Source: a virus. Taken from it: a DNA stretch of 61,527 nt. Numbering within the stretch: the stretch's first letter is position 1; each line of letters starts with the position of its first letter. Positions 1,200 through 17,493 of this stretch are shown here, piece after piece. The notes under the pieces are model-generated. The model was given only the letters and a program-made list of their open reading frames with translations, had not been told where the DNA came from and did not search any database. A program made the translations under genes and the position numbers. The stretch spans positions 1 to 61,527 of IMG/VR virus record IMGVR_UViG_3300033069_001718; one strand, given 5' to 3'.

Positions 1200-2146
1200 A
1201 GGGTGAGATCGAATTTAATGTTGTCGTAATTGTATTGTTCAGGGGTCATATACATGGTTTTTTTCAAATATGCGGCCAACCGCGCCGGATCGATGGCAAA
1301 CCCCTCCGGAGTATATTTACTGGGATCATGCATTTTGTAAAGCATATTCAATTTTGGCCCTGCTTCATTATAACCTAACCCAACCGCATCTGCTTCCGGA
1401 GTAAAGATGATATCGTGGATATCCAACCCGGCGTTCAAATTGTTCGCCGCGCCTTTAGGCCCAATATGATCTTTAATGGCCACTCCGGCGCCATCCATGG
1501 CCTTCACATGTTCAACGACTAAATCTTTTACCACTGCCCATTGCTTACTTATACTCGCGTTGAAAAAAGAATAAACACTTTCAATACAATAGGCCGCAAA
1601 AATATCAGGAATTAAACGGCCGTAATACTCTCTCAACTTTCGGTCATAGTATTGGAAATGGAGGTTGACACATTTTCCAACTGGAATAATCAAATCCTGT
1701 CCCCGGAAGATGGTATTTTTTGGAACATCGAACCACCAATCATAACCCATGTCATCATCGGTCTGTAAACTTATCATACCATATTTTTCTGTCATCGCTC
1801 GTTGGTTTATTTCCGATAGACAATTGTAATGTTCTTTAGTATTGATCCCGGAATCGATGTAAATATAACCATCAAATTCTCCCGCTTGTTTTACCACCTC
1901 CGTCACCGTTTTATTGAAAGTGAAGGGGAGGTTTAAACTTTCATCCATGTAATTATACCAGATCTTATTACCATAACGCTTTTTTAGGCCCTGTTTGGTT
2001 GCGCCGGTGACGCCACAACCACTAATAACAATACGAAACGGTTCGTGGTGCTGAGCTAAAAGTTTATCCAGAGAATCGATATACTGAAACAGATTGTTGT
2101 ATTTTAATTCGCAGATATTGAATATAACCAATAGATTCTTGTTCAT
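1196..2146 (-). CDS. hypothetical protein in glycan cluster (possible glycosyltransferase)
   Basis: Long ORF, translationally coupled on both sides. No clear motif. Confidence 0.45.
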   Translation of the reverse strand: MNKNLLVIFNICELKYNNLFQYIDSLDKLLAQHHEPFRIVISGCGVTGATKQGLKKRYGNKIWYNYMDESLNLPFTFNKTVTEVVKQAGEFDGYIYIDSGINTKEHYNCLSEINQRAMTEKYGMISLQTDDDMGYDWWFDVPKNTIFRGQDLIIPVGKCVNLHFQYYDRKLREYYGRLIPDIFAAYCIESVYSFFNASISKQWAVVKDLVVEHVKAMDGAGVAIKDHIGPKGAANNLNAGLDIHDIIFTPEADAVGLGYNEAGPKLNMLYKMHDPSKYTPEGFAIDPARLAAYLKKTMYMTPEQYNYDNIKFDLTL

Positions 2147-3723
2147 TAGTCTCCTAGTAGTTTTCTTTTTAAATTGATGGTAGTCAGAGCTTCCATATTT
2201 GTTCTGGCCTCTTTTCCAAACTTCTTTTCAAGCGATTCAAGATACCTTGGCGCGGAACAACACTTATGCCAGAATTCATCCCGAAATTTAAGAATCTGTT
2301 GGGGGGTAAGATGCTTGGTTGGTAACGGTTTACATTCATAGGAAAGAAATGCGAATTCATTGGGGTGTTCCGGTAACGCCCAACCATTTTTCTTCGCTTG
2401 AATATAAAGCGGACTTCCCGGCAAAGCTTGGCAGGGGTAAACATTTACCATCGCGGAATTTAGTTCCAACGCAAGGTTTAAAGTTTCATTCATCGTTTCC
2501 ATATTATCATCCGGAAAGCCAAGAATGTAATTGGCAATAATGTTGATATCCGCCCCTTCAATGGTTTTAACTACGTCCCTAATATTGGTGTTTTGAAATT
2601 TCCCCTTGGTTATTTCCAACCGAATATTTTGATTAGCGGCTTCGATTCCAAGCGCCAACCAGTTCACCCCGGCTTTTTTAAATAGTTCCAAGTATTTTTC
2701 CTGGACGGTATCAATCCGTGAATAAGCCCACATGCGGAGGGGCAATTTTCGGTCAACCAGATTGGTGAGGAGAGGTTCGAAATGAGACCGCTTGAGAAAA
2801 AACATCTCATCCGATAAACGCACGGTTTCCACCCCGTAAGCAGCCAATTTCTCAAATTCTTTTGTAATCAAATCGATACCCCAATAACGAATACCCTTCG
2901 AATCCTCCGAACTAACATACTCCCCATTATCCGTTCGATTGAGGATGTTAATCATACAAAAACTACATCCGAAGGGGCAGCCCAGTGAGGTATAAATCGC
3001 CGCGGCAGGCGTTCGTTTGGCGTGATCAAAATCAGCGTGCCAAAAGTGAGATTTGTATAAATCGAAGGGTTGGTTTTTATAGGGGAGCAAGTCCCACGCA
3101 TAGCCAGGCAAGTCTATGTCCATGCGTTCTTGGGGCACAACCATCTCAGGAGGATTCAGAATATGATATTGCTTTTCTCCACCGTGTATCACGGTTCCTA
3201 TCTGACACTCATAAGATACAATCTCAGTTTTATAGCCAATGCCTTTTACTTTATTTAACTGATCATTAGAACGCAAATTCGTTTTTAACAGATTTCTTAA
3301 AGCGTAAACGCCTTCATTCAAAAGAACAAAATCTACGAATGGTTTGGCTAAAACTTCTTTGGGCAGAGCGCTGACGTGGGAGCCGACCATACAGATGGGA
3401 AGACTTGGTAAAGCTAATTTTAATTTCTCCGCCGTGCGATACGCCCCAATCATCGAAGTAGTTCCAGAATTTGGATTGGGACCATACATTACAAATACCA
3501 CCAAACGCGGACTCAATTCTTCTATTCTTTTGATGGTCTGTCCATCAGTTAAACGTTCGGCATTAGCGTCACAGATAGCAACTTGGTAGCCCGCTGCCCG
3601 GCAACTTTGCGCCAAAAGTAAACTCCAGGTGGGAGTCTCAATGGCTGCGAAATTGTCCGAAAGCATTTGATATGCTTCCTTGGCACAATTGGGTTCAACG
3701 AATAAGACATCTAAATTTTTCAT
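2146..3723 (-). CDS. B12-binding radical SAM enzyme (class B radical SAM, probable C-methyltransferase-type)
   Basis: GCPFGCSFC CxxxCxxC motif after an N-terminal Rossmann-like domain of about 230 aa (LVVFVMYGPNP). 525 aa. Confidence 0.75.
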   Translation of the reverse strand: MKNLDVLFVEPNCAKEAYQMLSDNFAAIETPTWSLLLAQSCRAAGYQVAICDANAERLTDGQTIKRIEELSPRLVVFVMYGPNPNSGTTSMIGAYRTAEKLKLALPSLPICMVGSHVSALPKEVLAKPFVDFVLLNEGVYALRNLLKTNLRSNDQLNKVKGIGYKTEIVSYECQIGTVIHGGEKQYHILNPPEMVVPQERMDIDLPGYAWDLLPYKNQPFDLYKSHFWHADFDHAKRTPAAAIYTSLGCPFGCSFCMINILNRTDNGEYVSSEDSKGIRYWGIDLITKEFEKLAAYGVETVRLSDEMFFLKRSHFEPLLTNLVDRKLPLRMWAYSRIDTVQEKYLELFKKAGVNWLALGIEAANQNIRLEITKGKFQNTNIRDVVKTIEGADINIIANYILGFPDDNMETMNETLNLALELNSAMVNVYPCQALPGSPLYIQAKKNGWALPEHPNEFAFLSYECKPLPTKHLTPQQILKFRDEFWHKCCSAPRYLESLEKKFGKEARTNMEALTTINLKRKLLGD

Positions 3724-3726
3724 AAA

Positions 3727-4686
3727 TTAACCAATGGGATAAATAGTCGATACGCCATTGCGCTCGAATTGAAAATCAAAAACAGCCGGACCAAACTTTT
3801 CAGCGATACGCTTTTTAATCGGTGGGTCGCAGATAACCAATACGAAACCACAACCACCGGCGCCCAGTAACTTAACACCATGTGCGCCCATCGCCATAAC
3901 TTCATCTACTATGGTATTGATTTGGGAAGTAGAAATCAAGTTGGATATTTTGATTTTTTCTTGCCAGGTCGAATATAACATATTGCCGATACCTTTAATA
4001 TCTTCCCGAATAAAATAACCATAAGCTTCTTTGGCTAGTTTCATAATTTCCAGCTTGTCTTTGTTTTCATGAGACTGAGCGATGGTATCTTGATTCCGTT
4101 GGGAATTGGTATAGATCATAACCATCGAATCCTGAAATTCTTTAAGAAAATCGTGGGTGACTGGTAAAGGTTTTACGAGAAATTTTCCATTTTTTTCTAT
4201 CTCAATGGTGTTCAAACCGCCGTAGGCTGGCCAGATTTGGTCTTGGATTCCTCCGGGTTCGTTTAAAATACGTCGTTCGATGGCGATGGCCTCTTTAGCC
4301 AACTCTTTGGGATCGTGTTTCTTCCCAAAAATTTGATTTAAGAGATATAACATCCCTACGCAAAAAGAGGATGATCCACCCAAACCTGTGCGTGAGGGGA
4401 TATCAGAGAACGAATTAAACTCAATTGGAATGTTGATCGCACGATATTTTAATACTTCCCGAATGAGTGGGTTTTGAATTTCATCCCACGACTTTACCAA
4501 TTGTAGTTTAGAATAGGTTATAACACTCTCACTGGATAGTATACTTGGTCTTGGGCGCATTGAGAGGTAAACATATTTGTCAATTGTAGTCCCGATAATA
4601 AAAGACCCATACGCTTCGTAAAACGATTCGTAGTCAGTTGAACCGCCGAAGAAAGAAATTCGAAATGGGGATCTTACTATAATCAT
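3727..4686 (-). CDS. GHMP-family sugar kinase
   Basis: PSRTGLGGSSSFCVGML matches the GHMP kinase ATP-binding motif (PxGSGLGSSAA). 319 aa, similar in size to heptose or galacto-kinases. Confidence 0.7.
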   Translation of the reverse strand: MIIVRSPFRISFFGGSTDYESFYEAYGSFIIGTTIDKYVYLSMRPRPSILSSESVITYSKLQLVKSWDEIQNPLIREVLKYRAINIPIEFNSFSDIPSRTGLGGSSSFCVGMLYLLNQIFGKKHDPKELAKEAIAIERRILNEPGGIQDQIWPAYGGLNTIEIEKNGKFLVKPLPVTHDFLKEFQDSMVMIYTNSQRNQDTIAQSHENKDKLEIMKLAKEAYGYFIREDIKGIGNMLYSTWQEKIKISNLISTSQINTIVDEVMAMGAHGVKLLGAGGCGFVLVICDPPIKKRIAEKFGPAVFDFQFERNGVSTIYPIG

Positions 4687-5678
4687 TACACTATGGTTTT
4701 GCGAATATAATCAATTACTTCGTCAAGACTCTCGTCGATCTTGTATTGAGCTTCAAATCCCAAGACCTCTTTAGCCTTGCCAATGTTCGGTTGACGATGC
4801 TGTATATCATACTGGAAAGGAGGATCGTGGACAACACTAAAAGGTTTATTTCCATTAATTTTAACCCAAATCTTTTTAGCGAGATCGATTATTTTTATGT
4901 TTTCATCGGTGGAGATGTTAAAATCATCGTTTTCCGCTTTTGAACTTTCCATTGCCATTATAATACCCCGAGCAATATCCTGACCATTGGTAAAGTTGCG
5001 GGTTTGTTCACCGCTTCCAAGGATATGTAATGGGTCCTGACCTTTTAAGGTTTTAAAAATCAAGTCCGGCACGACATGGGATAACGTCAATTTTATGTTT
5101 CCAGACAACACTTCGGATTTTGCTACTGCGGAATCTTCGCCCACGCCTATACAATTGAAAGGTCTAACAATAGTATATTTCAATCCATATTGCTCGTATG
5201 CGGCTCTGGCAAAATATTCCGTCGCCAGTTTTTGAAAACCATAACTACTATCCGGCGGCGGAGATTTTTTAAGATCGGCTTCCGCCGATGGGAAAGTTTT
5301 AGTATTTTCAAATACCATTGAACTGGAAATTACTACTATACGTTTTAACCCTTTCATTTTAATGGCCGCGTCGAAGGTATTACAACCGATCCGCTCGTTA
5401 GCGGAAAGCAAATCGTAAGCAAAAGCATGAAAATAAGAGATGCCTCCGATCATTGCTGCGCCGGCAATAATATAATCCACTCCTGGAAGTCGTGGAAATG
5501 ACTGAGTCAAGTCGTGTTCAATTAATTGAAAACTTGGATTGTGATCGTGTGGTCTTCTAACCTTACCATACTTGGAAAAGTTATCAATGCCATATACGAA
5601 ATAACCCCGTTTTAATAACTGTTGGACGATATAACCACCAATGAAACCTTGTGAGCCTGTAACAATTACTTTTTTCAT
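4686..5678 (-). CDS. NAD-dependent epimerase/dehydratase (SDR)
   Basis: VIVTGSQGFIGGYIV GxxGxxG Rossmann motif. Start set at the ATG (MKKVIVTG) that overlaps the stop of the upstream gene. The track start at 5717 is an alternative-codon extension. Confidence 0.65.
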   Translation of the reverse strand: MKKVIVTGSQGFIGGYIVQQLLKRGYFVYGIDNFSKYGKVRRPHDHNPSFQLIEHDLTQSFPRLPGVDYIIAGAAMIGGISYFHAFAYDLLSANERIGCNTFDAAIKMKGLKRIVVISSSMVFENTKTFPSAEADLKKSPPPDSSYGFQKLATEYFARAAYEQYGLKYTIVRPFNCIGVGEDSAVAKSEVLSGNIKLTLSHVVPDLIFKTLKGQDPLHILGSGEQTRNFTNGQDIARGIIMAMESSKAENDDFNISTDENIKIIDLAKKIWVKINGNKPFSVVHDPPFQYDIQHRQPNIGKAKEVLGFEAQYKIDESLDEVIDYIRKTIV

Positions 5679-6613
5679 TAAATTCCTCTTATATTTGGAT
5701 AATTTTGAAGAAACCACTCTACTGAATTTTTGATAGCTATATCCAAATCAGTAAACTTAAAATCGGGAAACAACGAACGAAAGCGTGCCGTGTCCGACGG
5801 CCGGCGCAATTGCCCATTTGGTTTTTCGCTCAGATATTCGACATTCGGATATTCAAAATATTGGGTAATTCTTTCTACCAACTCTCTGATAGAAAATTCC
5901 TTGTTGTCAGATACGATAAGTAAATCTGGGGTATCATCTTCCATTTTTAAAAGTTCAACGCAGATTTTGGCTAGATCTTTGGAATAACAAAATTCGCGTT
6001 TAGCGATGCCGGTGCCCCAGACTTGAAATGGTTTATTGCTGCTTTTTGCGTCGTAACATTTTCGAATTAGACTGGGCACAACATGCCCATTTTCCAGGTC
6101 GTAATTGTCATGTTCGCCGAAGATATTTACAGGTAAAACCGATGAGTAATGTTTTATCCCATATTGCTTACGGTAAGATTTGATTTGAATATCAACCATC
6201 CGTTTAGAGTAAGCATACGACCCATGCGCATAATAAGGTGGCCCGTCATGAAGGATTTCCTCCTTGATGACCGTTGCGTTGTCAGGAAAAGCGCACACCG
6301 ACGAAAAGGCCAAAAGTTTCTCCACTCCTTGTTGATAGGCCTCATCAATCACCAAGGTATTCATAATAATGTTATGAAAGAATTGTTCCGCTGGTGAGGC
6401 GAGGTTTTTCCCAATTCCGCCGACCCTGGCCGCCGTATGAATAACATAATCCGGTTTCTCAGTTTTAAACACCGACTTGACATGGGCTTGATTGGTAAGG
6501 TCTGCTGATTTGTGATCGACGAATACAAAATTATATTCAGGGTAGACGGAAGATACACTTTTTAGAGCATTTCCTACTAAACCATTACCTCCCGTTACTA
6601 ATATTTTTTTCAT
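5678..6613 (-). CDS. GDP-L-fucose synthase-like 3,5-epimerase/4-reductase (Fcl / ColC-like SDR)
   Basis: ILVTGGNGLVGNAL N-terminus. HTAARVGGIGKN resembles the Fcl HLAAKVGGI region. 311 aa. Confidence 0.6.
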   Translation of the reverse strand: MKKILVTGGNGLVGNALKSVSSVYPEYNFVFVDHKSADLTNQAHVKSVFKTEKPDYVIHTAARVGGIGKNLASPAEQFFHNIIMNTLVIDEAYQQGVEKLLAFSSVCAFPDNATVIKEEILHDGPPYYAHGSYAYSKRMVDIQIKSYRKQYGIKHYSSVLPVNIFGEHDNYDLENGHVVPSLIRKCYDAKSSNKPFQVWGTGIAKREFCYSKDLAKICVELLKMEDDTPDLLIVSDNKEFSIRELVERITQYFEYPNVEYLSEKPNGQLRRPSDTARFRSLFPDFKFTDLDIAIKNSVEWFLQNYPNIRGI

Positions 6614-6618
6614 AACAT

Positions 6619-7410
6619 TTAATCCATTCTCATTCCCGCTTGTATAGTCTTTTTGTATTTTCCGTTTTCTTTTAACAAAGCGTCAAAAAAATCCACATCT
6701 AATTTCCGCGCGACTGAAGCAATTTCCTTTGTGTCTTTCGGCAGACAAACTCCCGCAAACCCTCTAAAATTATCATTACATTCCAGATACATATCCACAA
6801 TATGATTTCGGTTGACCATCGTGTTTTTAATGTGGGTGTAATCAACTTCATAATGTTTACAAACTTCATAAAAGCTATTGGCGAAAGTAATTAAAGTAGC
6901 ATTGTAAGTATTATTGAAATACTTGACCAGCTCCGCTTCGGTTGGAGTCATCTGAACAATTTTCTTTGGAAAATTCCCATGCGCATTTTTAAGCAATTCA
7001 AAGACAGATTGATCATCAGTCCCGACAACGCAGAGATCGTGGTTCTCCGTGAAGTCGGCTAAGGCATATCTTTCTCTGAGAAATTCTGGAGTCATAGCTA
7101 ATTTTAATCCTGTGTAAAAATCTGCCAATTTTTGAGTTGTGCCAGGCGCCACCGTTGATTTTATACATACCACCCCGGTATATTCCTTTTCATCCAACAA
7201 ACAAACCACCGATTCGACAACGGATGTGTCGCATGAACCATCTGGTTTTGACGGAGTAGGTACGCATAAGAATACTAATTCGGTATTCAACACTTCATCA
7301 ATGGTGGTACCTAGTTTAAGGTCATGGACTTTTACAACATGTCCTAATTTTTCAAACCCACCTTTACACGCATTACCCACTACTCCCAAGCCAATAATCC
7401 CGATATTCAT
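6619..7410 (-). CDS. nucleotide-sugar dehydrogenase-like NAD-binding protein (short UDP-glucose/GDP-mannose dehydrogenase-like)
   Basis: IGIIGLGVVGNACKGGFEKLGH plus a FLCVPTP motif typical of the UDP-glucose dehydrogenase N-domain. Only 263 aa. Confidence 0.5.
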   Translation of the reverse strand: MNIGIIGLGVVGNACKGGFEKLGHVVKVHDLKLGTTIDEVLNTELVFLCVPTPSKPDGSCDTSVVESVVCLLDEKEYTGVVCIKSTVAPGTTQKLADFYTGLKLAMTPEFLRERYALADFTENHDLCVVGTDDQSVFELLKNAHGNFPKKIVQMTPTEAELVKYFNNTYNATLITFANSFYEVCKHYEVDYTHIKNTMVNRNHIVDMYLECNDNFRGFAGVCLPKDTKEIASVARKLDVDFFDALLKENGKYKKTIQAGMRMD

Positions 7411-7979
7411 TTAGTTGCCTCCAGATTTAGACTGACTAGTTTACCTTCGATATCACTATCTTTCCGCCGCGTCGTATAGGCCATTTTTGGTAAATAACAT
7501 TGACTATAATCGTCAATATAAAAGTGTTCAGTGTCCCTCCAGTCGTATTTTTTTACCGACTGAAATCCAGCAACCTTCAAGTCCCGGCTGAGTGATTTCT
7601 CATCCCACCCCATATAATGAAAATCATAAGCGTGTCTCTGAGAACCGTAAAGCAGGGCTTGTAAAATATCCAGGTCTTTGTTGGCTATATAATATTCCAT
7701 TGCTGCGCCCAAATCGGGAACTGCGACTCGCAATACACCTCCTGGCTTCAAAACTTCAAACCAACGGCGCATAGCTTGCTTCGACCCCGCCCGTGTGGCG
7801 TGCTCCAAGACATGACAGACGTAGATTAAATCGACGGAGTCATTTTTGAATTTGTCTAGCTTAAACACATCATCTATTACATCTGGCTGGACATCTTCCC
7901 GGATGTCGATGTTGATGAACCCGTGGATTTTCTTTTGAAAACAACCGAGATGTAGTTTGACTTGTTTGTCATTGTTCAT
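7407..7979 (-). CDS. class I SAM-dependent methyltransferase
   Basis: VLKPGGVLRVAVPD motif-II-like. About 190 aa. Confidence 0.55.
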   Translation of the reverse strand: MNNDKQVKLHLGCFQKKIHGFINIDIREDVQPDVIDDVFKLDKFKNDSVDLIYVCHVLEHATRAGSKQAMRRWFEVLKPGGVLRVAVPDLGAAMEYYIANKDLDILQALLYGSQRHAYDFHYMGWDEKSLSRDLKVAGFQSVKKYDWRDTEHFYIDDYSQCYLPKMAYTTRRKDSDIEGKLVSLNLEATK

Positions 7980-9921
7980 AGGTCTTGTGTATTTCTTTCA
8001 CTTTTGTTTTATACCGATACGAGCGCCTGCCATACCAAATAGTTTCATATCCCCACTTGACAATGTCGTGTTCTGTAACCTTTGTCTTTTTTGAGAATGT
8101 AATCGGACCTTTAATCAGATCACTATCGCCGTTAAAATAACCTACCCAATCGAAGGCAAATTTTCCTTTAACTTCTTCTAAAAGCCGGTTTTCAGGCAAA
8201 CTTAACACCAATAATTGATAGTTTATTAGATCTTCAACCAGTTCGGCGGTTATACTTACACCCGTCTCCACATTTAAATAGTTCAGAAAAGACGACAACT
8301 CTTCTTTTATTCTGGAAGAATCGCGGGTGAGATGTAACCAACTTGCTTCTTCCATTGGCCAAGATATATCCCCCAAGTCATGATCGTAATAATCCCACCC
8401 TTGACCAGAATAACCATTTTTACAATGGTTTCTGGCTAGTTCGTATTCCTTACCGATGAAGGTTTTATTTTTCTTCATATACTCAGCAAGGTGATTATAA
8501 AATTGTTTGTAACTAAGGTTGTGTGATTTATTGTAATATCTGGATATCATTTCCGTGATGCCAAAGACGTGGAATATCATCATCATCCAGTTTGTCATAT
8601 ACACTTCTTCAATTTTACCATTTGGCAATGCGTCTGTGGCACATACCATTTTTTCAAATTCCTGAATCTCTCCGACCTTTTCCTTTTTGGCAATATGCTG
8701 CATGAACTGAGGCGATTTGAAAGCTTTAATCCCATAACGTTTCATATAGTCTGGATTATTCATTGGCGCATTAACAAAAATACTACAATTCCATACCATA
8801 ATTGCTGGTTGGGGGTCTAGTGAAGCGAGAATTTCCCAATTGTTTTTGAAGCTGTCAACCGTCTCTTCGGGCAACCCCATTATCATCTCCGTATAACTCT
8901 GAATCCCCTCATCATTGAACTTTTTAATCAGTCCTGAGAAGCTATCAAATTTTAAATTCTTACGTTTAATAGCTTCCAGTGTTTTGGGATCAAGGGATTG
9001 GACTGAAAGGGAAACAGCTCGCAATAAATCAACATCATTTAACACTTTTGCGATTGGAATGACCCGGTCTGATGAAGTCTTGACCCAAGTAAGGCCAATT
9101 CGCTCTGGAAAGCCGGTGGATTTTTTAAGGTCGGCTAGTTTTATCGCGATGTCGTGATCTCGCTTTTGAAAAATTCCAAAGTTCCCATCGCAACAATCGA
9201 TGTATGTGATGTTGTTTTTTCCAAACCATTCAATTTCTTTGAAAATTCTTTTTTCATCAAACGGTCTCAACTTGGACATAGTCGAACTTCCCCAGTCGCA
9301 GAAGGTACATGAAAACGGACATCCACGATTGGTTTCCCACGAAACGATATACTTTATGTTTGGATCACGCCGAGAAAGTTTCCAGATTAGATCGGTGGAG
9401 TAGGGGGATGGCCACTGACTGATGTCCGGCGTACGTATGCGTGGCTGACTTCGGTAGAATTTTGTTTCGGTTCCGTCGATATTTAAATTTTCCAAATTCA
9501 ACCCTGAAGCAAATTGTTTCAGAATTTCGTAAGAAGTGATTTCTCCTTCTCCGTGAACAAGAATATCCACGAATGGATTTTCATCAAAAAATTTGCCATC
9601 GTGGCTGTATGGAACTTCCGGACCTCCAAATACTATAATACATTGAGGATTTATAGCCTTTACACTTTTGGCTAAAAATTTGGTTATTTCCCAATTCCAC
9701 GAATAACACGAACAGAGAATGATCTTTGCTTCGCTTGCTTTAAGAATGTGATCTTGAATTTCAGAACGGAAGAGGAACGTCTCTTCAAAATCAAAAACAT
9801 CGGTGATTTCTTTAAATTGGAAACAATACGAAACTAAACACGCAATACTATAAGGAAAGTGAATTTGATTGTTTCCGAAGAAATTACTATATTGGCTGGA
9901 ATATACTTTTATTTTATCCAT
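7969..9921 (-). CDS. B12-binding radical SAM enzyme
   Basis: WETNRGCPFSCTFCDWGS CxxxCxxC. N-terminal IIVFGGPEV B12-domain-like. Start moved to the ATG preceded by AGGAGAT (MDKIKV). Confidence 0.75.
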   Translation of the reverse strand: MDKIKVYSSQYSNFFGNNQIHFPYSIACLVSYCFQFKEITDVFDFEETFLFRSEIQDHILKASEAKIILCSCYSWNWEITKFLAKSVKAINPQCIIVFGGPEVPYSHDGKFFDENPFVDILVHGEGEITSYEILKQFASGLNLENLNIDGTETKFYRSQPRIRTPDISQWPSPYSTDLIWKLSRRDPNIKYIVSWETNRGCPFSCTFCDWGSSTMSKLRPFDEKRIFKEIEWFGKNNITYIDCCDGNFGIFQKRDHDIAIKLADLKKSTGFPERIGLTWVKTSSDRVIPIAKVLNDVDLLRAVSLSVQSLDPKTLEAIKRKNLKFDSFSGLIKKFNDEGIQSYTEMIMGLPEETVDSFKNNWEILASLDPQPAIMVWNCSIFVNAPMNNPDYMKRYGIKAFKSPQFMQHIAKKEKVGEIQEFEKMVCATDALPNGKIEEVYMTNWMMMIFHVFGITEMISRYYNKSHNLSYKQFYNHLAEYMKKNKTFIGKEYELARNHCKNGYSGQGWDYYDHDLGDISWPMEEASWLHLTRDSSRIKEELSSFLNYLNVETGVSITAELVEDLINYQLLVLSLPENRLLEEVKGKFAFDWVGYFNGDSDLIKGPITFSKKTKVTEHDIVKWGYETIWYGRRSYRYKTKVKEIHKTYEQ

Positions 9922-10684: not shown

Positions 10685-10687
10685 AAA

Positions 10688-11518
10688 TTAAAATCGTTTT
10701 TTCCACACTGCGGGACTCTTTTTCCAATTCGAAACATCCAACAATAACTGATCGGCTTGTAGGGGTTTGGAATATTTTTCAATATAGATCGGGTAGTCGT
10801 CCTGAAACTGAGCGGCGACGATTGGGCCATGATCCCCAACATTAGGGTTGGGTTGGCAGTCGCAGTTCAACATTGGATAATCACTCATAACTACTTTTGC
10901 GCCCAAGGCTTGCGCTCGGACGGCCATATCCGCATGACCCGTTGGACACGCTTGATACTTACAATCCCAGGCTCCCAACTTATCAAAAAATTCACGATAT
11001 AAAATCGCCACGTTAAAAATCCACCAGTCAGGATGAATATACGGCGACGGAGGATAGGCTCGGACAAGTTTATAATAGCTATCATCGGCACCTCCATGCC
11101 GCGGGTCAGTCCCAGATCGGTTTTCGCCTTCAAGGTATCTAGCCACGACAACGTTTTGTACATCATATGGCATGGCATATAGTGTATCAATGTTTTTGTC
11201 CAACGCATCTTTAATAAACCAACCGTCGTCGGAAGTCCACATAACCAATTTCCCCTCACACAACTCTGCTCCAATATTTGAAGCGCGCATGGGAGAACCA
11301 AAATCCTTCACATACTTTACATTTTTTTGTTCTTGGAGAAATTTGGTTAAGGGGTAAGGGCCAACTACGATAAGTTCAAAGGAACGTTGGGTAGAATCCA
11401 ATATGGTTTTGTACACATCATCCCATTTATCCTGACGGATCGCCGGCATTATAATAGATACTTCCGGTTTTTCAACGGTGTTTAAAGAACTGACTAGAGT
11501 ATATTTGTATTCGCTCAT
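10688..11518 (-). CDS. glycosyltransferase family 2-like
   Basis: VSIIMPAIRQ N-terminus. Paralogous to the neighbouring GT2-like genes. Confidence 0.55.
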   Translation of the reverse strand: MSEYKYTLVSSLNTVEKPEVSIIMPAIRQDKWDDVYKTILDSTQRSFELIVVGPYPLTKFLQEQKNVKYVKDFGSPMRASNIGAELCEGKLVMWTSDDGWFIKDALDKNIDTLYAMPYDVQNVVVARYLEGENRSGTDPRHGGADDSYYKLVRAYPPSPYIHPDWWIFNVAILYREFFDKLGAWDCKYQACPTGHADMAVRAQALGAKVVMSDYPMLNCDCQPNPNVGDHGPIVAAQFQDDYPIYIEKYSKPLQADQLLLDVSNWKKSPAVWKKRF

Positions 11519-11521
11519 AAA

Positions 11522-12478
11522 TTAGGTGTTAAGATTACCGACCGCTATTTCAAGATTTTTATACCACCGCAGATATTCAGGAGTTCCAGGCATAGGAGCC
11601 ATGTCTGGAGTTAGTTCCGTTCGTATCTTATAGGTTTCATATTCTTTTCCTGTAATAGGAATTGGATATTTAAAGAACCGACGATCCCACACATCTGGTT
11701 GATTTTTCCAATTAGAATAGTTTAAAGTCTTTCGTTTGGTAGCCGCCGCTGGGTCTTGGTAAATTTGATTGAATAGTATCGTATCCACGCCCAATGTGGC
11801 GTCATGAACAGGTCCGTGATCTACTAGATGGCCGGAGTAATGCGTAAACACGGCGGCGACCTTTTCAAAATCGGTGACCTTGCCACCATCGGCTTGAACT
11901 CTAAAAATCATATCATGAATGGCATGATTGGAATACTCCCAACGACAATCAAATCCGCCTAGTTCCAGAAAATAATCCAATTTCATAAAAAAATGAAGTG
12001 AGATTCTCCACTCAGGTTTTATTCCGGGTTGTTGTAAGTCGGGCCAAAAACCGGCACGCCACAACTCAGAGTTATACGGTACGGGATTTACTTCAATGGG
12101 GTTTAAAGTATTCATATCCAACACATGTTTCCCTTCCACGTAAACCATGTTAATGACATCTTTTGGCCCCATAGTTTTGCGATGTAATTCAATCGCTTCG
12201 TCAATGACATCTTCCAACAGAAACCCGTCGTCGGTGATGTTGTAAAGAAACTCACCGTTACATAACTGGATGGCTAATTGTTTAGCCACGGTGGGCGCCG
12301 CGTGGGTTTTTATGACTTTGATATTAGGCATTCGTTTTACATCTTCAGGAACATCAAAGGGTGTGGGGATAACAATTTCCCAGGAATGTTTCTTACAGGC
12401 GGATTGAACCGATGCGCAGAAAGTTTCTAAAAAATGGGGCCGAATACTTGGGAGAATTATAGATACGTCTTTTTTCAT
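11522..12478 (-). CDS. glycosyltransferase family 2-like
   Basis: VSIILPSIRP N-terminus. Shares a conserved C-terminal region (GGxDCRWE, AxHD) with the 9914 and 10688 paralogs. Confidence 0.55.
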   Translation of the reverse strand: MKKDVSIILPSIRPHFLETFCASVQSACKKHSWEIVIPTPFDVPEDVKRMPNIKVIKTHAAPTVAKQLAIQLCNGEFLYNITDDGFLLEDVIDEAIELHRKTMGPKDVINMVYVEGKHVLDMNTLNPIEVNPVPYNSELWRAGFWPDLQQPGIKPEWRISLHFFMKLDYFLELGGFDCRWEYSNHAIHDMIFRVQADGGKVTDFEKVAAVFTHYSGHLVDHGPVHDATLGVDTILFNQIYQDPAAATKRKTLNYSNWKNQPDVWDRRFFKYPIPITGKEYETYKIRTELTPDMAPMPGTPEYLRWYKNLEIAVGNLNT

Positions 12479-13644
12479 ATTTGGTTTAGCAACGTGGTTA
12501 GCTCATTAATCTTTTCCTTTTCCAGTTCTGGATAGTTTCCGATATACCAGCCAAAATGATGGACGTGATCCGCATTGGGGAATTTTTTATAGGCTTCGTT
12601 GTAAATCCCCCGAAGATAAGGTTGACGGAGCTGATTGCCGCCTCCGGACATACCCCGGCGGAATTCTATACTATTTTGGTTCAAACAGATTTCAACCTTG
12701 TCGCGTGTGGCGAAATCCTTGTCCCGCAACATAAGGGTGAAGGCATAATTACTATTTCCAATCCGGTTAAAATCGGTGTAGAATTTTTTCGCATCCAAAC
12801 CATCCAAGAATACATCAAGATTTTCTTTCCTACGGAGATTGTTTTCGTCAAGGCGGTCTAGTTGGTTCAAAGCCATTACCGCATTAATCTCCGTTGACCG
12901 CATATTATAGGCAGGCGCCACGAAAATAAAATCCTTGTTTAAATCTGGAAAGTCTTTAAAAATAGTCTCCTTTAATTGATCATCGGTACTCTCACGCAAC
13001 ATGCCATGCGAACGAAACATCCGCACGGTCTGATAGATCAAATCGTCATCGGTACAAATCATCCCACCTTCAATGCTGGTCATATGATGCGCATAATAAA
13101 ATGAAAAATTGGAAATCAAACCGAAGCTGCCTGCTTTTTTCCCATTAAAAGTTGCGCCGTGGGATTCACAAACATCCTCAACCAACATTAACTTGTTCTG
13201 TTCGCATAGATCAAGAATACCTTGCGTCAAACCGTTATAACCCAGCACATGGGTCAGGAACACGGCTCGAGCATCCTTAGAACACTTCTCCAGTTCTTTT
13301 TCATCTAAAGCAAGAGTTTTAAGGTTGATGTCACAGAACACAGGTTTTAATTCCGATTGAAGCACCGATGCGATATCTGATACCCACGTCAACGGTGGCA
13401 CAATAACTTTGCTGTTTTGTGGCAGGGATAAAAACCGTAAGACGCTCATCGTCAAAAGATTGGCGGCCGAACCAGAGTTTAAAAATACGGAATGTTTTTT
13501 ACCCACCCACGCCGACCAACGTTTTTCAAATTCTACCACTTTTTTACTGTTGGTAAGAATGGGCATCGGTTCTTGGTTCAAGAATTCTACGATCTTATTC
13601 AAATCGTTCCGGGTAATATTATTGTTCATCAAAGGCCATTTCAT
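12475..13644 (-). CDS. DegT/DnrJ/EryC1-family PLP enzyme, probable NDP-4-keto-6-deoxyhexose 3-dehydratase (ColD / E1-like)
   Basis: DegT-like fold (SGSAANLL, HVLGYNG, EDVCESHGA). The PLP-lysine position reads FYYAHHMTSIEGG, with His in place of Lys, as in ColD/E1 dehydratases. Start placed at the ATGA-coupled ATG. The track start is TTG. Confidence 0.55.
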   Translation of the reverse strand: MKWPLMNNNITRNDLNKIVEFLNQEPMPILTNSKKVVEFEKRWSAWVGKKHSVFLNSGSAANLLTMSVLRFLSLPQNSKVIVPPLTWVSDIASVLQSELKPVFCDINLKTLALDEKELEKCSKDARAVFLTHVLGYNGLTQGILDLCEQNKLMLVEDVCESHGATFNGKKAGSFGLISNFSFYYAHHMTSIEGGMICTDDDLIYQTVRMFRSHGMLRESTDDQLKETIFKDFPDLNKDFIFVAPAYNMRSTEINAVMALNQLDRLDENNLRRKENLDVFLDGLDAKKFYTDFNRIGNSNYAFTLMLRDKDFATRDKVEICLNQNSIEFRRGMSGGGNQLRQPYLRGIYNEAYKKFPNADHVHHFGWYIGNYPELEKEKINELTTLLNQI

Positions 13645-14600
13645 AGTAATTCTGCTTTCATCCAATCGTATGTTTTTTGGATTCCGGTAATAAGGTTTAC
13701 TTTGGGTTCCCAACTAAGGACATTTTTAGCCTTCGATACATCAACCCGCCTCACTGGAATCATTTGCGGCCCAGTGGGGATTAGTTTATATGGGGTTATG
13801 ACTCCAGATACAGATTGAATCATCTGTAAGAGTTCCAGGACGGTAAACGACGAACCATAACCAATATTGAATTGGTTGAACCCATCTATTTTCTCTGCGG
13901 CCAGGAGCATCGCATCAACCATATCATCCACATATAACACGTCTCTAACATCTTGTCCGGTCCCCCACACCTCCACGGGATTCTGACCTTCAATAACTTT
14001 GCGAATTAGGGAGGCGAGAACGTGGGAACGCTTAGGGTCAATCTTATCATTCGGACCGTAGATATTAGACGGTCGGAGGGTAATACATGTCATTGGGTCT
14101 TTGACTTTGGTGGAATATAACTCACACAACTTTTCGGTGTATCGCTTCATCCAACCAACGGCGAAGTATTTATCAAAAGGGTCACCAACGAACATTTCTT
14201 CTTCGGTCATTGGTTGGGCACCTTCCGGATATCCGGTCGTGCTCGCCAACCATATGAATTTTTTAACTTTATTACGATAACAGGCATCAAGAAGATTTAT
14301 GTTCATGATGGTGTTATCCTTTGACATTGCCGTTGGTGATTCTAAATGGGTTGCTGCGCCGGAGCTATTCGCCGCGCAATGGAAAACAACGTCGGTATCC
14401 TTTGTTATTTCATCGCAGAATTTCTGGTCTAGCAAATCTCCCGCCTTGGATCTTAAACACACATTCAAATTTTTTATTGGATTCTTATGATGCGTGGTCA
14501 GTAAACTACATTGATAATTTTTTATTATCGTTCGGCTTAGATTAGAACCGATCAATCCAGAGGCTCCGGTGATCAATATGTTTTTTCCGTTTAAAGTCAT
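13641..14600 (-). CDS. NAD-dependent epimerase/dehydratase (SDR)
   Basis: ILITGASGLIGSNL Rossmann motif. 319 aa. Confidence 0.7.
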   Translation of the reverse strand: MTLNGKNILITGASGLIGSNLSRTIIKNYQCSLLTTHHKNPIKNLNVCLRSKAGDLLDQKFCDEITKDTDVVFHCAANSSGAATHLESPTAMSKDNTIMNINLLDACYRNKVKKFIWLASTTGYPEGAQPMTEEEMFVGDPFDKYFAVGWMKRYTEKLCELYSTKVKDPMTCITLRPSNIYGPNDKIDPKRSHVLASLIRKVIEGQNPVEVWGTGQDVRDVLYVDDMVDAMLLAAEKIDGFNQFNIGYGSSFTVLELLQMIQSVSGVITPYKLIPTGPQMIPVRRVDVSKAKNVLSWEPKVNLITGIQKTYDWMKAELL

Positions 14601-15508
14601 AACTTTTCTTCCGTATAAATATCCAGTAAACGTTTTTGTTCAGAATCTGTCAAAAGGGGGAGATTTTGAGCTTCAATATTCTCACTAACTTCAGTTCTTA
14701 GTTTCATTCCAGGAATTATAGTACAAACGGATGGATTAGACAAACAAAATCTTAAACAATTTTGCGCATCGGAATATTTATTAGGATCCAATGAACCTAG
14801 CATTTTTTTATAGATCTGAGTCATTTTAGAGACGCGTTCCTGAGACCAATTATTTCTGCGGTCGGCTGTATCGTCATTAAATTTAAAACAACCGGTGAGA
14901 ATTCCCTGACCAAGCGGCGTGCGGATAACTGTTTTAACTCCCTTCTTGACACACAAATCAAAAAGGCCCGACGTTTCCGCCCGGCGGTCCAGTAAATTGT
15001 AATTTACTTCAATGACTTCAAACCCATATTCATTTATGGCAATAAATCCATCCTCTGGATTTTTTAGAGAAATACCTTTTCTTTTTATCAGTCCACTATC
15101 TTTCATTGTGTCCAGATACCAAAGGAGATGACAATCTTTTAAAACTTCTATGTCCGGACTATGTAACATATACACGTCAACGAAATCGGTTTTCAATCGT
15201 GCCAAGCTTTGGGTAAGAGATTTGGCCAAATGGGTAATGGAAAAGTCCTGTTTACCGTCGTTGGAAATCATACCCCCCTTGGTAATGAGGACGATATCAT
15301 TTCGCACTTTATGAAACAAGTCCCCTAACAACGATTCGGTATAACCGTAACCATAAAAATCTGCCGTATCAAAGACATTTATACCCTGGGCAAACGCATA
15401 CATTAAAGCTTTAATCGAATCCGTCTCATTTACTTTTCCGTAAGAGATTGAACCATTGACATCACCGACTAATGGCCATGTCCCATAACCTATTTTATTC
15501 CATATCAT
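14597..15508 (-). CDS. aldo/keto reductase family oxidoreductase
   Basis: N-terminal GYGTW...GINVFDTADFYG is AKR-like. Confidence 0.6.
   Translation of the reverse strand: MIWNKIGYGTWPLVGDVNGSISYGKVNETDSIKALMYAFAQGINVFDTADFYGYGYTESLLGDLFHKVRNDIVLITKGGMISNDGKQDFSITHLAKSLTQSLARLKTDFVDVYMLHSPDIEVLKDCHLLWYLDTMKDSGLIKRKGISLKNPEDGFIAINEYGFEVIEVNYNLLDRRAETSGLFDLCVKKGVKTVIRTPLGQGILTGCFKFNDDTADRRNNWSQERVSKMTQIYKKMLGSLDPNKYSDAQNCLRFCLSNPSVCTIIPGMKLRTEVSENIEAQNLPLLTDSEQKRLLDIYTEEKL
14601..14624 (-). promoter_or_regulatory. same motif on the minus strand upstream of the SDR gene 13641..14600
   Basis: Minus-strand reading: ggATATTTATAcggaagaaaagttATGACT. The motif lies inside the 3-prime end of the upstream AKR gene. 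Confidence 0.35.
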
Positions 15509-15510
15509 AA

Positions 15511-17493
15511 TTAAAAATGTCCCTGTAAGATATATTCTGATTCCCAGTTGCCATACAGATATGCGCCTTTTTTATTGCCGTACCAAACCACTTCCTTGAA
15601 CCACTGCGGCCAGTTGGTATATGTGGTTTTAGACCGTTCGATTTTGTACTTGGTGGAAACCTTCTCCAGCTCCTTCGAATCTGACTCTAACGCAGCGCGG
15701 TAAAACTTCATAATATCATAATTAAGAGTAATGTCAATATCATCATTGACGAATGGGAGTTTTAATAATTGCCGATTTAACTTAAAAGCATCGTCAAGCG
15801 CGGCTAAGTCTGCGTTTTGACCGGTATTTTTCAATAGGGCTAAAAGTAAGTTCTGGGCTTCCTTATAAAACTGATCAACTTTGTTTTCGACCACCAATTT
15901 TATATAGGAGTATTCGTCTGCGGGCCACCAGATATTCAACCATTCTTTAGCTTCACAATATTCCGCGCCTCCGGTTTGAATATCCAACGCTTTGGCGACA
16001 AAAAATTCCCTAATCTCATTGATTACCGGATAGTTTTTCGTATAATTTTCATCCATAAACGCAGAGAAAATGTCCTTGTAACTAATTCCTGATTGTTTGT
16101 GAAACAGGATGATGGGTATTTGCATGATCTTATCGAAGTGAAGCAACGCGGTCATCCAACAATAAGCTCTAGTTTTTAACCAATCATTCTTTGGCATAGA
16201 ATCCGTCCCCACGACAAGAACCTGTTTTTCACGAATGGAAAGGTCATCTTTTTCTTCATCCAATGAACCGTGGAAATTGATAATATCAGTTGTCACCATC
16301 TTCATACCAAATTTCTTTTGATATTCCGGATTACCCATTTCTGCGTTAGGTAGGATGGAGAGATTATTAAACTGAATGCGATTGTGTTGTCCGTTACGCA
16401 TGATCTGATCAATTCCACTTATGAATGAATCGTAAGTTTCTCCGGGCATGGCTAGAATCATATCGGAATAAGTTTCCACTTTATCCCGCATAAACCGGCG
16501 TTGTAGTTCTTGATAGGAGGCGAGTGAAATATTGTCCCGCCGGATATTGGTAAGGGTTGTTTTATCCATCGACTGAACCGAAAGCGTCACGCCTTTATTC
16601 AACCCCGCATCGGACAGCATTTTTTGAATTTCGTAGGATCGATCCGTCGCATTCTTGGTATTTTGAACAGAGAGGGCTTTAGGGTAGCCGGTTTTCGTTT
16701 TGACATCGACGATGTATTTGGTGATATCGATGTCCCGAACAAGAATGCCGTAATTCGCATCACAACAGAAGACAAATTCCACTTTATGCCCCGCGAACCA
16801 ATCTACTTCCCTGAACAATCGTTGCTCTTCAAATTTGCTGATTTTGACCTGAATCGCCGAACCCCAGTCACAATAAGCGCATTGGAATGGACACCCACGA
16901 TTGGTTTCCCATAACCCCAACCATTGTTCTCCTGGGTTTTTTAGGATGATGGAATCAAACGCGCCGTTTAGATAGGGCGATGGCAATTCATCTAAAGTCT
17001 TGAATCGGCCAACTTTCGGGTTGTTAACAAACTTTCCTTCATGGATATATGATATTCCCGGAACATCCTTCCACGTCTGTTTCAAATCTCCAGTGTAGTT
17101 TTGGAGGATGAGAGTAAAAACATGTTCCCCCTCTCCGTGGACAGCTAGGTCAATGAACGGGTGTTTAGGCAACCACGCCTCCGCCTTATCCGGAACTTGG
17201 GGGCCTCCAAAAATAATAAGACATTTTGGATTTAACTTTTTTAGTTCGGCCGCAATTTTAAGCGAAATTCTTTCATTCCAGACATAGGTGCTAAAACCAA
17301 CGATATCACAATATTTGAGGTGTTCAACCGCAACGTGAACTGGAACACGTTTATAGATCGGGTCAATGAATTCATACTCTGATACTTTGGGGCAGTGCGC
17401 ATGCGCATATACCTGAATTAATCCCGCAGCGTAGGGAAAATAACTCTGGCCGGAAAAACTTGTATTAATTTGGACGAGTCCAACTTTTTTCAT
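15511..17493 (-). CDS. B12-binding radical SAM enzyme
   Basis: WETNRGCPFQCAYCDWGS. N-terminal LIIFGGPQV. Paralog of 7969..9921. Confidence 0.75.
   Translation of the reverse strand: MKKVGLVQINTSFSGQSYFPYAAGLIQVYAHAHCPKVSEYEFIDPIYKRVPVHVAVEHLKYCDIVGFSTYVWNERISLKIAAELKKLNPKCLIIFGGPQVPDKAEAWLPKHPFIDLAVHGEGEHVFTLILQNYTGDLKQTWKDVPGISYIHEGKFVNNPKVGRFKTLDELPSPYLNGAFDSIILKNPGEQWLGLWETNRGCPFQCAYCDWGSAIQVKISKFEEQRLFREVDWFAGHKVEFVFCCDANYGILVRDIDITKYIVDVKTKTGYPKALSVQNTKNATDRSYEIQKMLSDAGLNKGVTLSVQSMDKTTLTNIRRDNISLASYQELQRRFMRDKVETYSDMILAMPGETYDSFISGIDQIMRNGQHNRIQFNNLSILPNAEMGNPEYQKKFGMKMVTTDIINFHGSLDEEKDDLSIREKQVLVVGTDSMPKNDWLKTRAYCWMTALLHFDKIMQIPIILFHKQSGISYKDIFSAFMDENYTKNYPVINEIREFFVAKALDIQTGGAEYCEAKEWLNIWWPADEYSYIKLVVENKVDQFYKEAQNLLLALLKNTGQNADLAALDDAFKLNRQLLKLPFVNDDIDITLNYDIMKFYRAALESDSKELEKVSTKYKIERSKTTYTNWPQWFKEVVWYGNKKGAYLYGNWESEYILQGHF

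Follow-up and report, generated by a model that had tools for sequence, protein, structure and literature searches.

A predicted mosaic glycan island with four class B radical SAM genes in a probable T4-like phage genome

Several viruses encode glycan systems of their own: T4-like cyanophages such as P-SSM2 carry lipopolysaccharide (LPS)-type gene clusters, giant viruses possess glycan machinery, and some mycobacteriophages have glycosylated virions. The islands of T4-like cyanophages and giant viruses combine nucleotide-sugar pathways with many glycosyltransferases (GTs), and we found the same combination in the stretch of DNA analyzed here, the IMG/VR virus record IMGVR_UViG_3300033069_001718 (positions 1 to 61,527; this whole stretch of 61,527 nucleotides (nt) is called the window). 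What distinguishes the window from such islands is a set of class B radical S-adenosylmethionine (SAM) enzymes. Such enzymes have, to our knowledge, not been reported from viral glycan islands, and full-text literature searches for these enzymes in phages or glycan islands returned nothing relevant. The enzyme class and the phage glycan island are each known already; for their combination we found no description.

The described enzymes closest to those of the window are of four kinds. TokK and ThnK (carbapenem) and CysS (cystobactamid) are iterative, cobalamin-dependent C-methylases with three domains from antibiotic pathways. In the fosfomycin system (Fom1/Fom2/FomC/Fom3), Fom3 methylates CMP-hydroxyethylphosphonate; PhpK and SD_1168 are class B methylases that act on phosphonates or phosphinates. 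GenK, GenD1 and Fms7, which act on aminoglycoside pseudo-oligosaccharides, are class B enzymes that methylate unactivated sugar carbons (PMC12931638). AprD4, the radical SAM 1,2-diol dehydratase of apramycin biosynthesis, also acts on a sugar, and both AprD4 and ArsL have a B12-type domain yet leave cobalamin unbound (PMC12931638). We consider it rather probable that the window carries a mosaic phage glycan island in which four class B enzymes tailor nucleotide-activated building blocks, each having arrived with its own gene module. This explanation is built on domain architecture, clade membership, gene linkage, phage context and recurrence in viral contigs, from which we infer the substrates, the order of the steps, the use of cobalamin by two of the enzymes and the acceptor.

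Six radical SAM genes and a TokK/CysS-type pair

We labeled the six radical SAM open reading frames (ORFs) rS1 to rS6, of which rS1-rS4 are class B and rS5 and rS6 plain radical SAM genes. The Pfam radical SAM profile PF04055 matched all six above its gathering score of 29.5 bits (rS1 55.3, rS2 49.4, rS3 33.6, rS4 69.3, rS5 30.2 and rS6 60.3 bits), and a six-frame scan of the window found CxxxCxxC in exactly six ORFs of at least 100 amino acids (aa), namely these six genes. An earlier model-generated note on this DNA (the original prediction) had counted six radical SAM enzymes, had given four of them an N-terminal B12-binding-type Rossmann domain and had found none in the ORFs at 37174-38223 (rS5) and 57307-58224 (rS6), and both the count and the division held. 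The gathering score of the B12-binding profile PF02310 (32.1 bits) was exceeded by rS1 (52.8 bits) and rS4 (49.3 bits), while rS2 (30.9 bits) and rS3 (31.3 bits) scored slightly under it; since the alignments of rS2 and rS3 to the cobalamin enzyme TokK begin at residues 16-23, the cobalamin domain is covered in these two proteins as well. The original prediction had staked the class on a B12-type domain detectable by profile and on conservation of the CxxxCxxC cysteines; the domain was detected, and the three cysteines were invariant or near-invariant among 120-150 homologs of each class B protein. Some of its details needed adjustment. The motif xxVFGGPxV, described as common to the four class B ORFs, was literal in rS2 (IIVFGGPEV) and nearly so in rS3 (LIIFGGPQV), and the residues at that position differed in rS1 (ICMVGSHVS) and rS4 (VIVGGNYIT). 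The range 2146-17493 given for the four class B genes contains three of them, the fourth lying at 42269-43732. For rS2, given as 7969-9921, the longest ORF reaches 9948, and position 9921 corresponds to Met10, the start preferred by the closest homolog. Three class B genes were found within 15.3 kb and four within 41.6 kb, in addition to the two further radical SAM genes.

Among solved enzymes, rS2 (659 aa; 7969-9948, minus strand, alternative start 9921) and rS3 (660 aa; 15511-17493, minus strand) were closest to TokK and CysS. Residues 23-607 of rS2 aligned with residues 14-610 of TokK (7kdx; E = 8e-92), residues 16-481 of rS3 aligned with residues 20-481 of TokK (E = 2.4e-97), and the matches to CysS had E-values of 8e-48 and 1.2e-56, respectively. 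Homology to the TokK/ThnK/CysS clade was full-length and included the C-terminal domain, with the three-domain architecture shared over nearly the full length and the cluster cysteines present in both proteins. TokK places one tryptophan, Trp76, below the corrin and another, Trp215, in its active site; their conservation is described as restricted to TokK, ThnK and CysS (bioRxiv 10.1101/2021.07.10.451909). We found that both of these clade-specific positions were kept in rS2 (SCYSWN and CDWGS) and in rS3 (STYVWN and CDWGS), and that W210 was invariant across the rS3 family. The best NCBIfam family for both proteins was KedN5 (NF033712), where scores of 231 bits (rS2) and 287 bits (rS3) below the cut-off of 700 indicated that they are related to this curated subfamily and lie outside it. 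Taken together, these comparisons strongly suggest that rS2 and rS3 are methylcobalamin C-methyltransferases of the TokK/CysS clade, and the cobalamin dependence predicted for them is well founded. The C-methylation put forward in the original prediction is therefore a strong call for this pair and is not established for rS1 and rS4. Its dependence on host cobalamin was overstated: as an enzyme need it is well founded for rS2 and rS3 and uncertain in the case of rS1 and rS4, and the window showed no cob or btu gene. Unlike TokK and CysS, which belong to a pantetheine-linked antibiotic pathway, rS2 and rS3 lie among nucleoside diphosphate (NDP)-sugar and glycosyltransferase genes in a phage, and iteration, which is established for TokK, ThnK and CysS, is for them only possible. 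The likeness of rS2 and rS3 to GenK, GenD1 and Fms7 is drawn from enzyme class and described activity.

The genes beside rS3 point to a deoxysugar route. Directly downstream of rS3 on the minus strand are an aldo-keto reductase (14597-15508; PF00248, 169 bits), an Fcl/ColC-like epimerase-reductase of the short-chain dehydrogenase/reductase (SDR) type (13641-14600; GDP-L-fucose synthase model, 166 bits) and a pyridoxal/pyridoxamine phosphate-type sugar 3-dehydratase resembling ColD (12475-13713). The best PDB match of the last protein was ColD (2gms, E = 1e-47), followed by the E1 dehydrase. Its motif SFYYAHH, in which His replaces the Schiff-base (catalytic) Lys of aminotransferases, aligned with FSSFYSHH of ColD, and we take this His to be the ColD catalytic position His188. 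Bacterial and phage loci (L004, L015 and L061; L002-L182 are the labels of our comparison loci, which comprise bacterial and archaeal genomes and IMG/VR viral contigs) have this motif in their partner genes as well. The ColD-type His ruled out an aminotransferase for this DegT-family gene. The protein scored 200 bits against the NCBIfam model RfbH (cut-off 423), its cysteine spacing was by eye unlike that of the E1 [2Fe-2S] cluster, and its sequence was nearer to ColD than to E1. The order rS3, aldo-keto reductase, Fcl-like SDR and ColD-like gene was kept in L002, L010 and many IMG/VR loci, with identities to L002 and L010 of 60-62% for the Fcl-like SDR and 57-58% for the aldo-keto reductase. 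Bacterial rS3 orthologs were found in clusters with SIS, GHMP kinase, NTP-transferase/HAD, SDR, ColD-like and split transketolase-like genes.

In the GDP-colitose pathway, GMD, ColD and ColC act together. The window has the counterparts of all three: a GDP-mannose 4,6-dehydratase (GMD)-like enzyme (53528-54679, plus strand; PF16363 321.9 bits, gmd model 293 bits against a cut-off of 415), which is the probable entry point for 6-deoxy sugars, the ColD-type dehydratase with His for Lys, and the adjacent Fcl/ColC-like SDR. It differs from that pathway in that a TokK-type radical SAM gene and an aldo-keto reductase gene are inserted in the module and in that the GMD gene is distant, so the expected product is a modified 3,6-dideoxy sugar and not colitose. 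The substrate of rS3 would be a GDP-linked 3,6-dideoxy-4-keto sugar, made by the GMD-like enzyme and the ColD-type 3-dehydratase and later reduced by the Fcl-like SDR and the aldo-keto reductase. In this colitose-like route, the new methylene or methyl would offer an unactivated carbon of the kind that such methylases attack: a 5'-deoxyadenosyl radical generated from SAM would abstract a hydrogen, and methylcobalamin would donate the methyl group.

rS2, from the same clade and a rarer lineage, may methylate a second sugar. On the minus strand, it is flanked on one side, at 9914-12478, by a 256-aa protein, a GT2 glycosyltransferase (by GT2 matches) and a 318-aa protein, and flanked on its other side, at 4686-7979, by two SDRs (one Fcl-like, 207 bits), a short NDP-sugar dehydrogenase-like protein and a methyltransferase. 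A module of methyltransferase, rS2, 256-aa protein, GT2, 318-aa protein and Fcl-like SDR recurred in the IMG/VR locus L123, with identities of 43-49% for the methyltransferase and the Fcl-like SDR and 36-44% for the 256-aa, GT2 and 318-aa proteins. The two Pfam orphans of this group (9914-10684 and 11522-12478, both minus strand) are alike by eye, with VIIPT or IILPS at the N-terminus and GGLDCRFEH or GGFDCRWEY further on, and look like GT-A-type glycosyltransferases. The dehydrogenase-like protein (6619-7410, minus strand; 263 aa) covers profile positions 57-297 of 413, so that the NAD domain is cut short at its start and the C-terminal domain is missing altogether. Since similar short hits (27-35% identity) were obtained in other viral loci, it may be a genuine short form and not a pseudogene.

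rS1, rS4 and their chemistry

The third class B gene of the first island, rS1 (525 aa; 2146-3723, minus strand), has the motif CPFGCSFC at residue 249 and is adjoined by an HddA-like GHMP sugar kinase (3727-4686, minus strand; GHMP_kinases_N and GHMP_kinases_C, HddA model 137 bits). Also on the minus strand are a GT2 glycosyltransferase with weak GT2 matches and a 316-aa protein (489-2146), and a 141-aa nucleotidyltransferase resembling RfaE domain II (67-492; PF01467 59.5 bits, rfaE_dom_II 60 bits). These associations recurred elsewhere. A GHMP kinase adjoined the rS1 homolog in Herminiimonas (L015) and in 48 of 80 IMG/VR loci; the RfaE-II-like gene co-occurred with the GHMP kinase and rS1 in L016, L018 and L019; and the GT2 and 316-aa genes were kept beside rS1 in L016-L019 and L021-L023 at 31-48% identity. 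Bacterial rS1 orthologs were located in clusters of GHMP kinase, SIS, NTP-transferase, SDR, ColD-like and transketolase-like genes. A literature search for the combination of heptose, GHMP kinase, transketolase and radical SAM genes found nothing.

One of the IMG/VR loci, L061 (UViG 3300043570_001741, 157.7 kb), has the rS1 cassette inside a clear T4-like phage, which encodes a gp20 portal (E = 3.7e-179), a scaffold protein, gp23 (E = 1.9e-142) and a UvsW-type helicase domain (PF21241, E = 9.2e-18). Its cassette (9995-14786), consisting of the rS1 homolog, a split E1/transketolase-like pair, a GHMP kinase and a ColD-type dehydratase, is placed between the UvsW-type helicase gene and a gp46-like gene. 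The same contig carries a homolog of DruA of the Druantia defense system at 20059-21336 (PF14236, 63 bits). In the window, rS1 would work on a sugar activated by the HddA-like kinase and the RfaE-II-like nucleotidyltransferase, and its chemistry could be methylation, dehydration or rearrangement.

The fourth class B gene, rS4 (487 aa; 42269-43732, minus strand), is convergent with a gene for a LicD phosphotransferase fused to a PF01467 cytidylyltransferase (CT) domain (41284-42282, plus strand; Pfam LicD and CTP_transf_like). This pairing was found in three phage contigs, the window, L013 and L096. For the cellular context we used 35 GTDB loci of at least 10 kb with homologs of at least 44% identity, many of them from Pelagibacteraceae single-cell genomes and DPANN archaea. 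Within 10 kb of the rS4 homolog, a phosphoenolpyruvate (PEP) mutase gene was present in 23 of the 35 loci, a fused CT domain in 21, the phosphonopyruvate decarboxylase gene Ppd in 18 and an iron-containing alcohol dehydrogenase (Fe-ADH) gene in 12. In Ca. Nitrohelix, the homolog lies between genes for a 2-aminoethylphosphonate (AEP) aminotransferase (417 bits) and a phosphonopyruvate decarboxylase (484 bits), both above their NCBIfam cut-offs (L012). L098 (at 2897-9521) and L099 share the order CT-PEP mutase fusion, Ppd, Fe-ADH, (LicD), TylF and radical SAM gene, and the phage CT domain shared 33% identity over 76 aa with the one that L098 carries as a fusion with PEP mutase. Fusions of PF01467-type phosphonyl cytidylyltransferases to PEP mutase (Ppm) have been described (PMC8942020). 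The rS4 family is a frequent, apparently uncharacterized member of PEP-mutase clusters; among L140-L182 (GTDB genomes) it was seen in such clusters of Pelagibacteraceae (single-cell genomes), Nanoarchaeota, Woesearchaeota, Omnitrophota and Nitrospinota, in most cases accompanied by a CT-Ppm fusion, Ppd and Fe-ADH. The terms "radical SAM", "cobalamin" and "Fom3" are absent from the paper on SAR11 phosphonates (PMC8931226).

The CT-PEP mutase, Ppd and Fe-ADH genes beside the cellular homologs of rS4 (44-53% identity) resemble the fosfomycin arrangement, and the phage itself has a PF01467 cytidylyltransferase next to rS4; rS4 is likened to Fom3 by this gene context. The original prediction had suggested C-methylated or otherwise exotic sugars for the four class B enzymes together, and the cluster context makes rS4 look phosphonate-related (Fom3/PhpK-like) and not like a sugar C-methylase. 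The CT half of the fusion would activate a phosphate or phosphonate alcohol to its CMP form, on which rS4 would act as Fom3 does, and the LicD half would then transfer the product onto the glycan. Fusion of the CT to LicD, a difference from the fosfomycin system, implies transfer to a glycan and not release of a small molecule.

It is possible, though we think it the less probable case, that only rS2 and rS3 are cobalamin methylases and that rS1 and rS4 are class-B-like enzymes performing other radical chemistry on sugars or phosphonates, perhaps without cobalamin; AprD4-type dehydration, HpnJ-type ring contraction and BchE-type cyclization are candidates. AprD4 was the best PDB sequence match of both rS1 (E = 4.6e-10) and rS4 (E = 5.2e-18), a similarity that is weak (E of 1e-10 to 1e-18) and mostly confined to the radical SAM core. 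The best NCBIfam families of rS1 were HpnJ (108 bits) and BchE (98 bits), both far under their cut-offs. An AlphaFold2 model of rS1 (mean predicted local distance difference test score 74.8) matched TsrM, AprD4, MgmA, CysS, TokK and OxsB over the full length, with AprD4 as one of the top fold matches; this search supported the class and left TsrM and AprD4, a methylase and a dehydratase, unseparated. AprD4 falls within the class B sequence network without using cobalamin (PMC12931638), and the example of AprD4 and ArsL makes the predicted use of cobalamin by rS1 and rS4 uncertain. On the other hand, both proteins exceeded the gathering score of PF02310, and the best family of rS4, matched over nearly the full length, was the characterized Sden_1168 P-methyltransferase (211 bits), followed by HpnJ, BchE and PhpK. 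The cellular context of rS4 also copies the Fom1/Fom2/FomC/Fom3 arrangement, where methylation is the task of the class B enzyme. Membership of rS4 in the Sden_1168 or PhpK families themselves was rejected, since its scores were below the cut-offs of both (575 for Sden_1168; 114 bits against 600 for PhpK).

Several observations weigh against the proposal that all four enzymes tailor activated building blocks as outlined. None of the four class B proteins reached an NCBIfam equivalog cut-off. The best match of rS1 and rS4 being a cobalamin-independent diol dehydratase, these two may neither use cobalamin nor transfer a methyl group. The substrate-binding Arg280 of TokK aligned with Ser in rS3, so that the substrate must differ and TokK is no guide to it, and the GMD-like gene is ~40 kb away from the rS3 module. 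Genes for PEP mutase, Ppd, Fe-ADH and AEP transaminase (PhnW) were found neither in the window nor in the flanks of L013 and L096. With no genes for making the C-P bond, the phage would have to draw a phosphonate substrate from the host or from an unseen part of its genome, and would encode only the activating, tailoring and transferring steps. Moreover, the CT domain, the C-terminal part of the LicD fusion, resembles TagD, a glycerol-3-phosphate cytidylyltransferase, and the substrate could equally be a phosphate ester.

Separate modules in a phage genome

The original prediction had called the four class B genes paralogous, which is correct at the superfamily level and does not extend to recent paralogy. 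rS2 and rS3 were 28.6% identical over 637 residues, the other pairs were 20-25% identical (E-values of 1e-5 to 1e-14), and the four proteins represented three or four separate class B subfamilies. Outside homologs were much closer: rS3 had 65-77% identity to proteins on likely-phage contigs and 55-59% to bacterial ones, rS4 had 60-63% to likely-phage contigs and 44-53% to bacteria and archaea, and rS1 had 60-77% overall, phage and cellular homologs taken together. rS2 belongs to a rare lineage, whose cluster representatives had 60, 53, 46 and 40% identity, followed by the general TokK-like set at ~30-37%. Because mutual identity was 20-29% and the outside orthologs were so much closer, the four genes look like separately acquired modules and not like duplications within the phage. 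Recent in-phage paralogy was ruled out by the same comparison (20-29% mutual against 50-77% outside identity). One rS3 homolog (P0012; 72% identity, 1059 aa, on a 31.5-kb contig) contained an intein with a homing-endonuclease insertion (PF14528, PF14890).

When we searched 50,697 deposited phage records with tblastn, weak matches numbered zero for rS1, two for rS3 and ten for rS4. IMG/VR, on the other hand, contained at least 337 stretches encoding rS1 relatives and 42 contigs with TokK-like enzymes; the relatives of rS1 and rS4 were retrieved there by alignment-based scans, single-sequence scans having given none. Among 124 IMG/VR loci that we fetched (each at most 22 kb), 113 had one class B gene, ten had two and one had three, and the count in the window is at the top of the range of this sample.

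The sugar genes form a dense run of minus-strand ORFs (67-23866) and a second, mostly plus-strand block (35181-43732), and the replication genes of the window lie between the two islands (28449-34688, plus strand). These encode a T4 gp43-type family B DNA polymerase (PolB; phrog_262, E = 9.3e-179), a Macro-domain protein and a gp44-type clamp loader (phrog_168, E = 7.3e-74), a placement that upheld the original description of the window as phage DNA. PolB matched 2,662 of the deposited phage records, the best being Microcystis phage Mel-JY01 at 42% identity, followed by T4-like cyanophages at about 31%; a literature search on Mel-JY01 found nothing. A PD-(D/E)XK nuclease and a NUMOD3/DUF559 homing endonuclease also lie between the sugar blocks, and later in the window come an SNF2 helicase, an HNH endonuclease, a ClpP-like protease, a dCMP deaminase (59126-59668) and a tRNA-Leu gene. 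As part of the explanation that we rate as rather probable overall, the window would belong to a large T4-like phage genome of at least 125 kb with Mel-JY01 as its closest cultured relative. Megablast of window positions 1-25000 gave no nucleotide-level match among deposited phages.

Could the window instead be a chimeric assembly, or a bacterial polysaccharide locus beside a prophage remnant? The DNA comes from a metagenome contig (125,527 bp, JGI sample 3300020576), neither a capsid nor a tail gene was identified within the window, and each of the sugar and radical SAM genes has close bacterial homologs (50-60% identity). We nevertheless regard this as highly improbable. Both islands alternate with phage-type genes (T4-type PolB, clamp loader, homing endonucleases, ClpP-like protease, dUTPase and dCMP deaminase), and the contigs of the nearest homologs of rS3, rS4 and rS1 (60-77%) also encode phage proteins, with lysozyme and DUF5661 in L013 and a clamp loader in L100 and L110. 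The gene order of the window was repeated on an independent contig of 11.8 kb from the same sample, and the junction of PDDEXK nuclease, GT1, the 446-aa GT (GT446), GT2c and rS3 recurred in the independent IMG/VR loci L103, L104 and L111. A bacterial origin was ruled out by this synteny with phage genes kept across contigs. To the left of window position 1, a contig from the same sample (L007, 906-2834) has two more SDR epimerase/dehydratase genes, and the whole sugar cluster is therefore not contained in the window.

Some further features of the phage genes were recorded. A free-standing NUMOD3 plus DUF559/Vsr-like homing-type endonuclease ORF (27754-28470, plus strand) overlaps with its end the start of PolB, and a free-standing HNH endonuclease ORF (54723-55367, minus strand) comes right after the GMD-like gene. 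The gene between those for PolB and the clamp loader encodes the Macro-domain protein (32172-32795, plus strand; PF01661, 36 bits), a candidate ADP-ribose hydrolase of counter-defense.

Glycan machinery, purpose and significance

Beyond the class B modules, the first island includes a glycosyltransferase block (17490-23866, minus strand) of a 385-aa protein, a GT2, the 446-aa GT and a GT1/GT4, with an embedded dUTPase gene (21728-22357, minus strand). The dUTPase ORF shares ~190 nt with a 157-aa ORF (21445-21918, minus strand); probably one start site is wrong or the shorter ORF is spurious. In the second island, Pfam identified a GT1, a GT2, rS5, a methyltransferase, a 205-aa protein, a GT25 and a GT32-like protein (35181-41296, plus strand). 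rS5 (37174-38223, plus strand), a divergent radical SAM protein with CDSDCPFC at residue 49 and a GGGNP motif, sits in a GT2-rS5-methyltransferase operon in which both of its gene ends overlap the neighbors. rS6 (57307-58224, minus strand) is MoaA/viperin-like, with 75 bits for MoaA and 54 bits for viperin, both under cut-off, CNARCSWC at residue 29 and a GGEP motif. Altogether the window encodes at least 12 soluble glycosyltransferase-type genes (GT2-type, GT1/GT4, GT25, GT32-like, LicD and two GT-like proteins). Wzx, Wzy, an exporter and an initiating phosphoglycosyl transferase were all missing from the Pfam results for the window, and by a hydropathy scan none of the sugar-cluster proteins has a membrane-spanning segment. 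The lack of a flippase, a polymerase and a membrane protein suggests cytoplasmic assembly on a soluble or host-supplied acceptor; the structure on which the glycosyltransferases would build the glycan may be a virion protein or an intermediate of the host envelope. Since the radical SAM genes sit in nucleotide-sugar and glycosyltransferase clusters, exotic or C-methylated sugars in the glycan, as the original prediction had them, are a reasonable reading; the case is strong for rS2 and rS3, and methylation by rS1 and rS4 is uncertain.

The same enzymes could serve to remodel the host cell surface (LPS, capsule, or S-layer and glycoprotein glycans) and leave the virion undecorated, a purpose that we regard as less likely than not. 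The glycosyltransferases would then act on lipid- or protein-linked intermediates of the host, and the result could block superinfection or alter grazing or adsorption. The LPS-type clusters of P-SSM2-like cyanophages speak for such a role, as does the position of bacterial rS1, rS3 and rS4 orthologs in cell-surface polysaccharide-type or phosphonoglycan-type clusters. In SAR11 and Prochlorococcus, moreover, surface glycoproteins carry the phosphonates (PMC8931226). The lack of Wzx, Wzy, an ABC exporter, an initiating phosphoglycosyl transferase and any sugar-cluster membrane protein argues against it, and a lytic T4-like phage has little time to profit from remodeling; neither point is decisive.

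A third purpose, hypermodification of the phage DNA with glycosylated or alkylated bases, was considered because the island lies beside replication and nucleotide genes (the dUTPase, the dCMP deaminase and PolB). T-even phages glycosylate hydroxymethylcytosine, and radical SAM enzymes take part in the thymidine hypermodification of some phages. However, Pfam found no dCMP or dUMP hydroxymethylase and no thymidylate-synthase homolog in the window, at least 12 GTs of five families together with LicD go far beyond the needs of DNA glycosylation, and the orthologous bacterial clusters are NDP-sugar or polysaccharide clusters. We judged this purpose very unlikely and ruled it out on the missing hydroxymethylase and the excess of glycosyltransferases.

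We return to the proposal that the class B enzymes tailor nucleotide-activated building blocks of a glycan. A wider claim, which we advance only tentatively, is that T4-like phages not yet in culture widely carry cobalamin-dependent radical SAM modules for undescribed viral sugars and substituents, including C-alkylated sugars and a methylated phosphonate ester. If true, TokK-type methylases, perhaps iterative ones, would act on nucleotide sugars to give C-alkylated 3,6-dideoxy or heptose-type sugars, and a methylated phosphonate ester would be installed by a Fom3-like enzyme together with a LicD-cytidylyltransferase. The phage would make its own phosphono-glycan or copy that of its host, and infection would depend on the host supply of B12 and phosphonate.

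Class B radical SAM enzymes are hard to study, and those of the TokK/CysS types are known from antibiotic pathways. The placement of this clade in conserved nucleotide-sugar modules of phages and many bacteria, each time with a ColD-type 3-dehydratase next to it, offers a testable substrate class, the GDP-4-keto-3,6-dideoxy sugars, for a large family that is uncharacterized. Within the PEP-mutase clusters found in SAR11, DPANN archaea and other groups, the rS4 family marks a further uncharacterized step of tailoring, and the surface phosphonates of these organisms matter for marine phosphorus cycling. Class B modules are recurrent auxiliary genes in IMG/VR yet nearly absent from the deposited phage records. 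As the window shows, enzymes predicted to be oxygen-sensitive and to need B12 and Fe-S clusters can form part of a phage glycan island, which would tie the success of infection to the cofactor status of the host.

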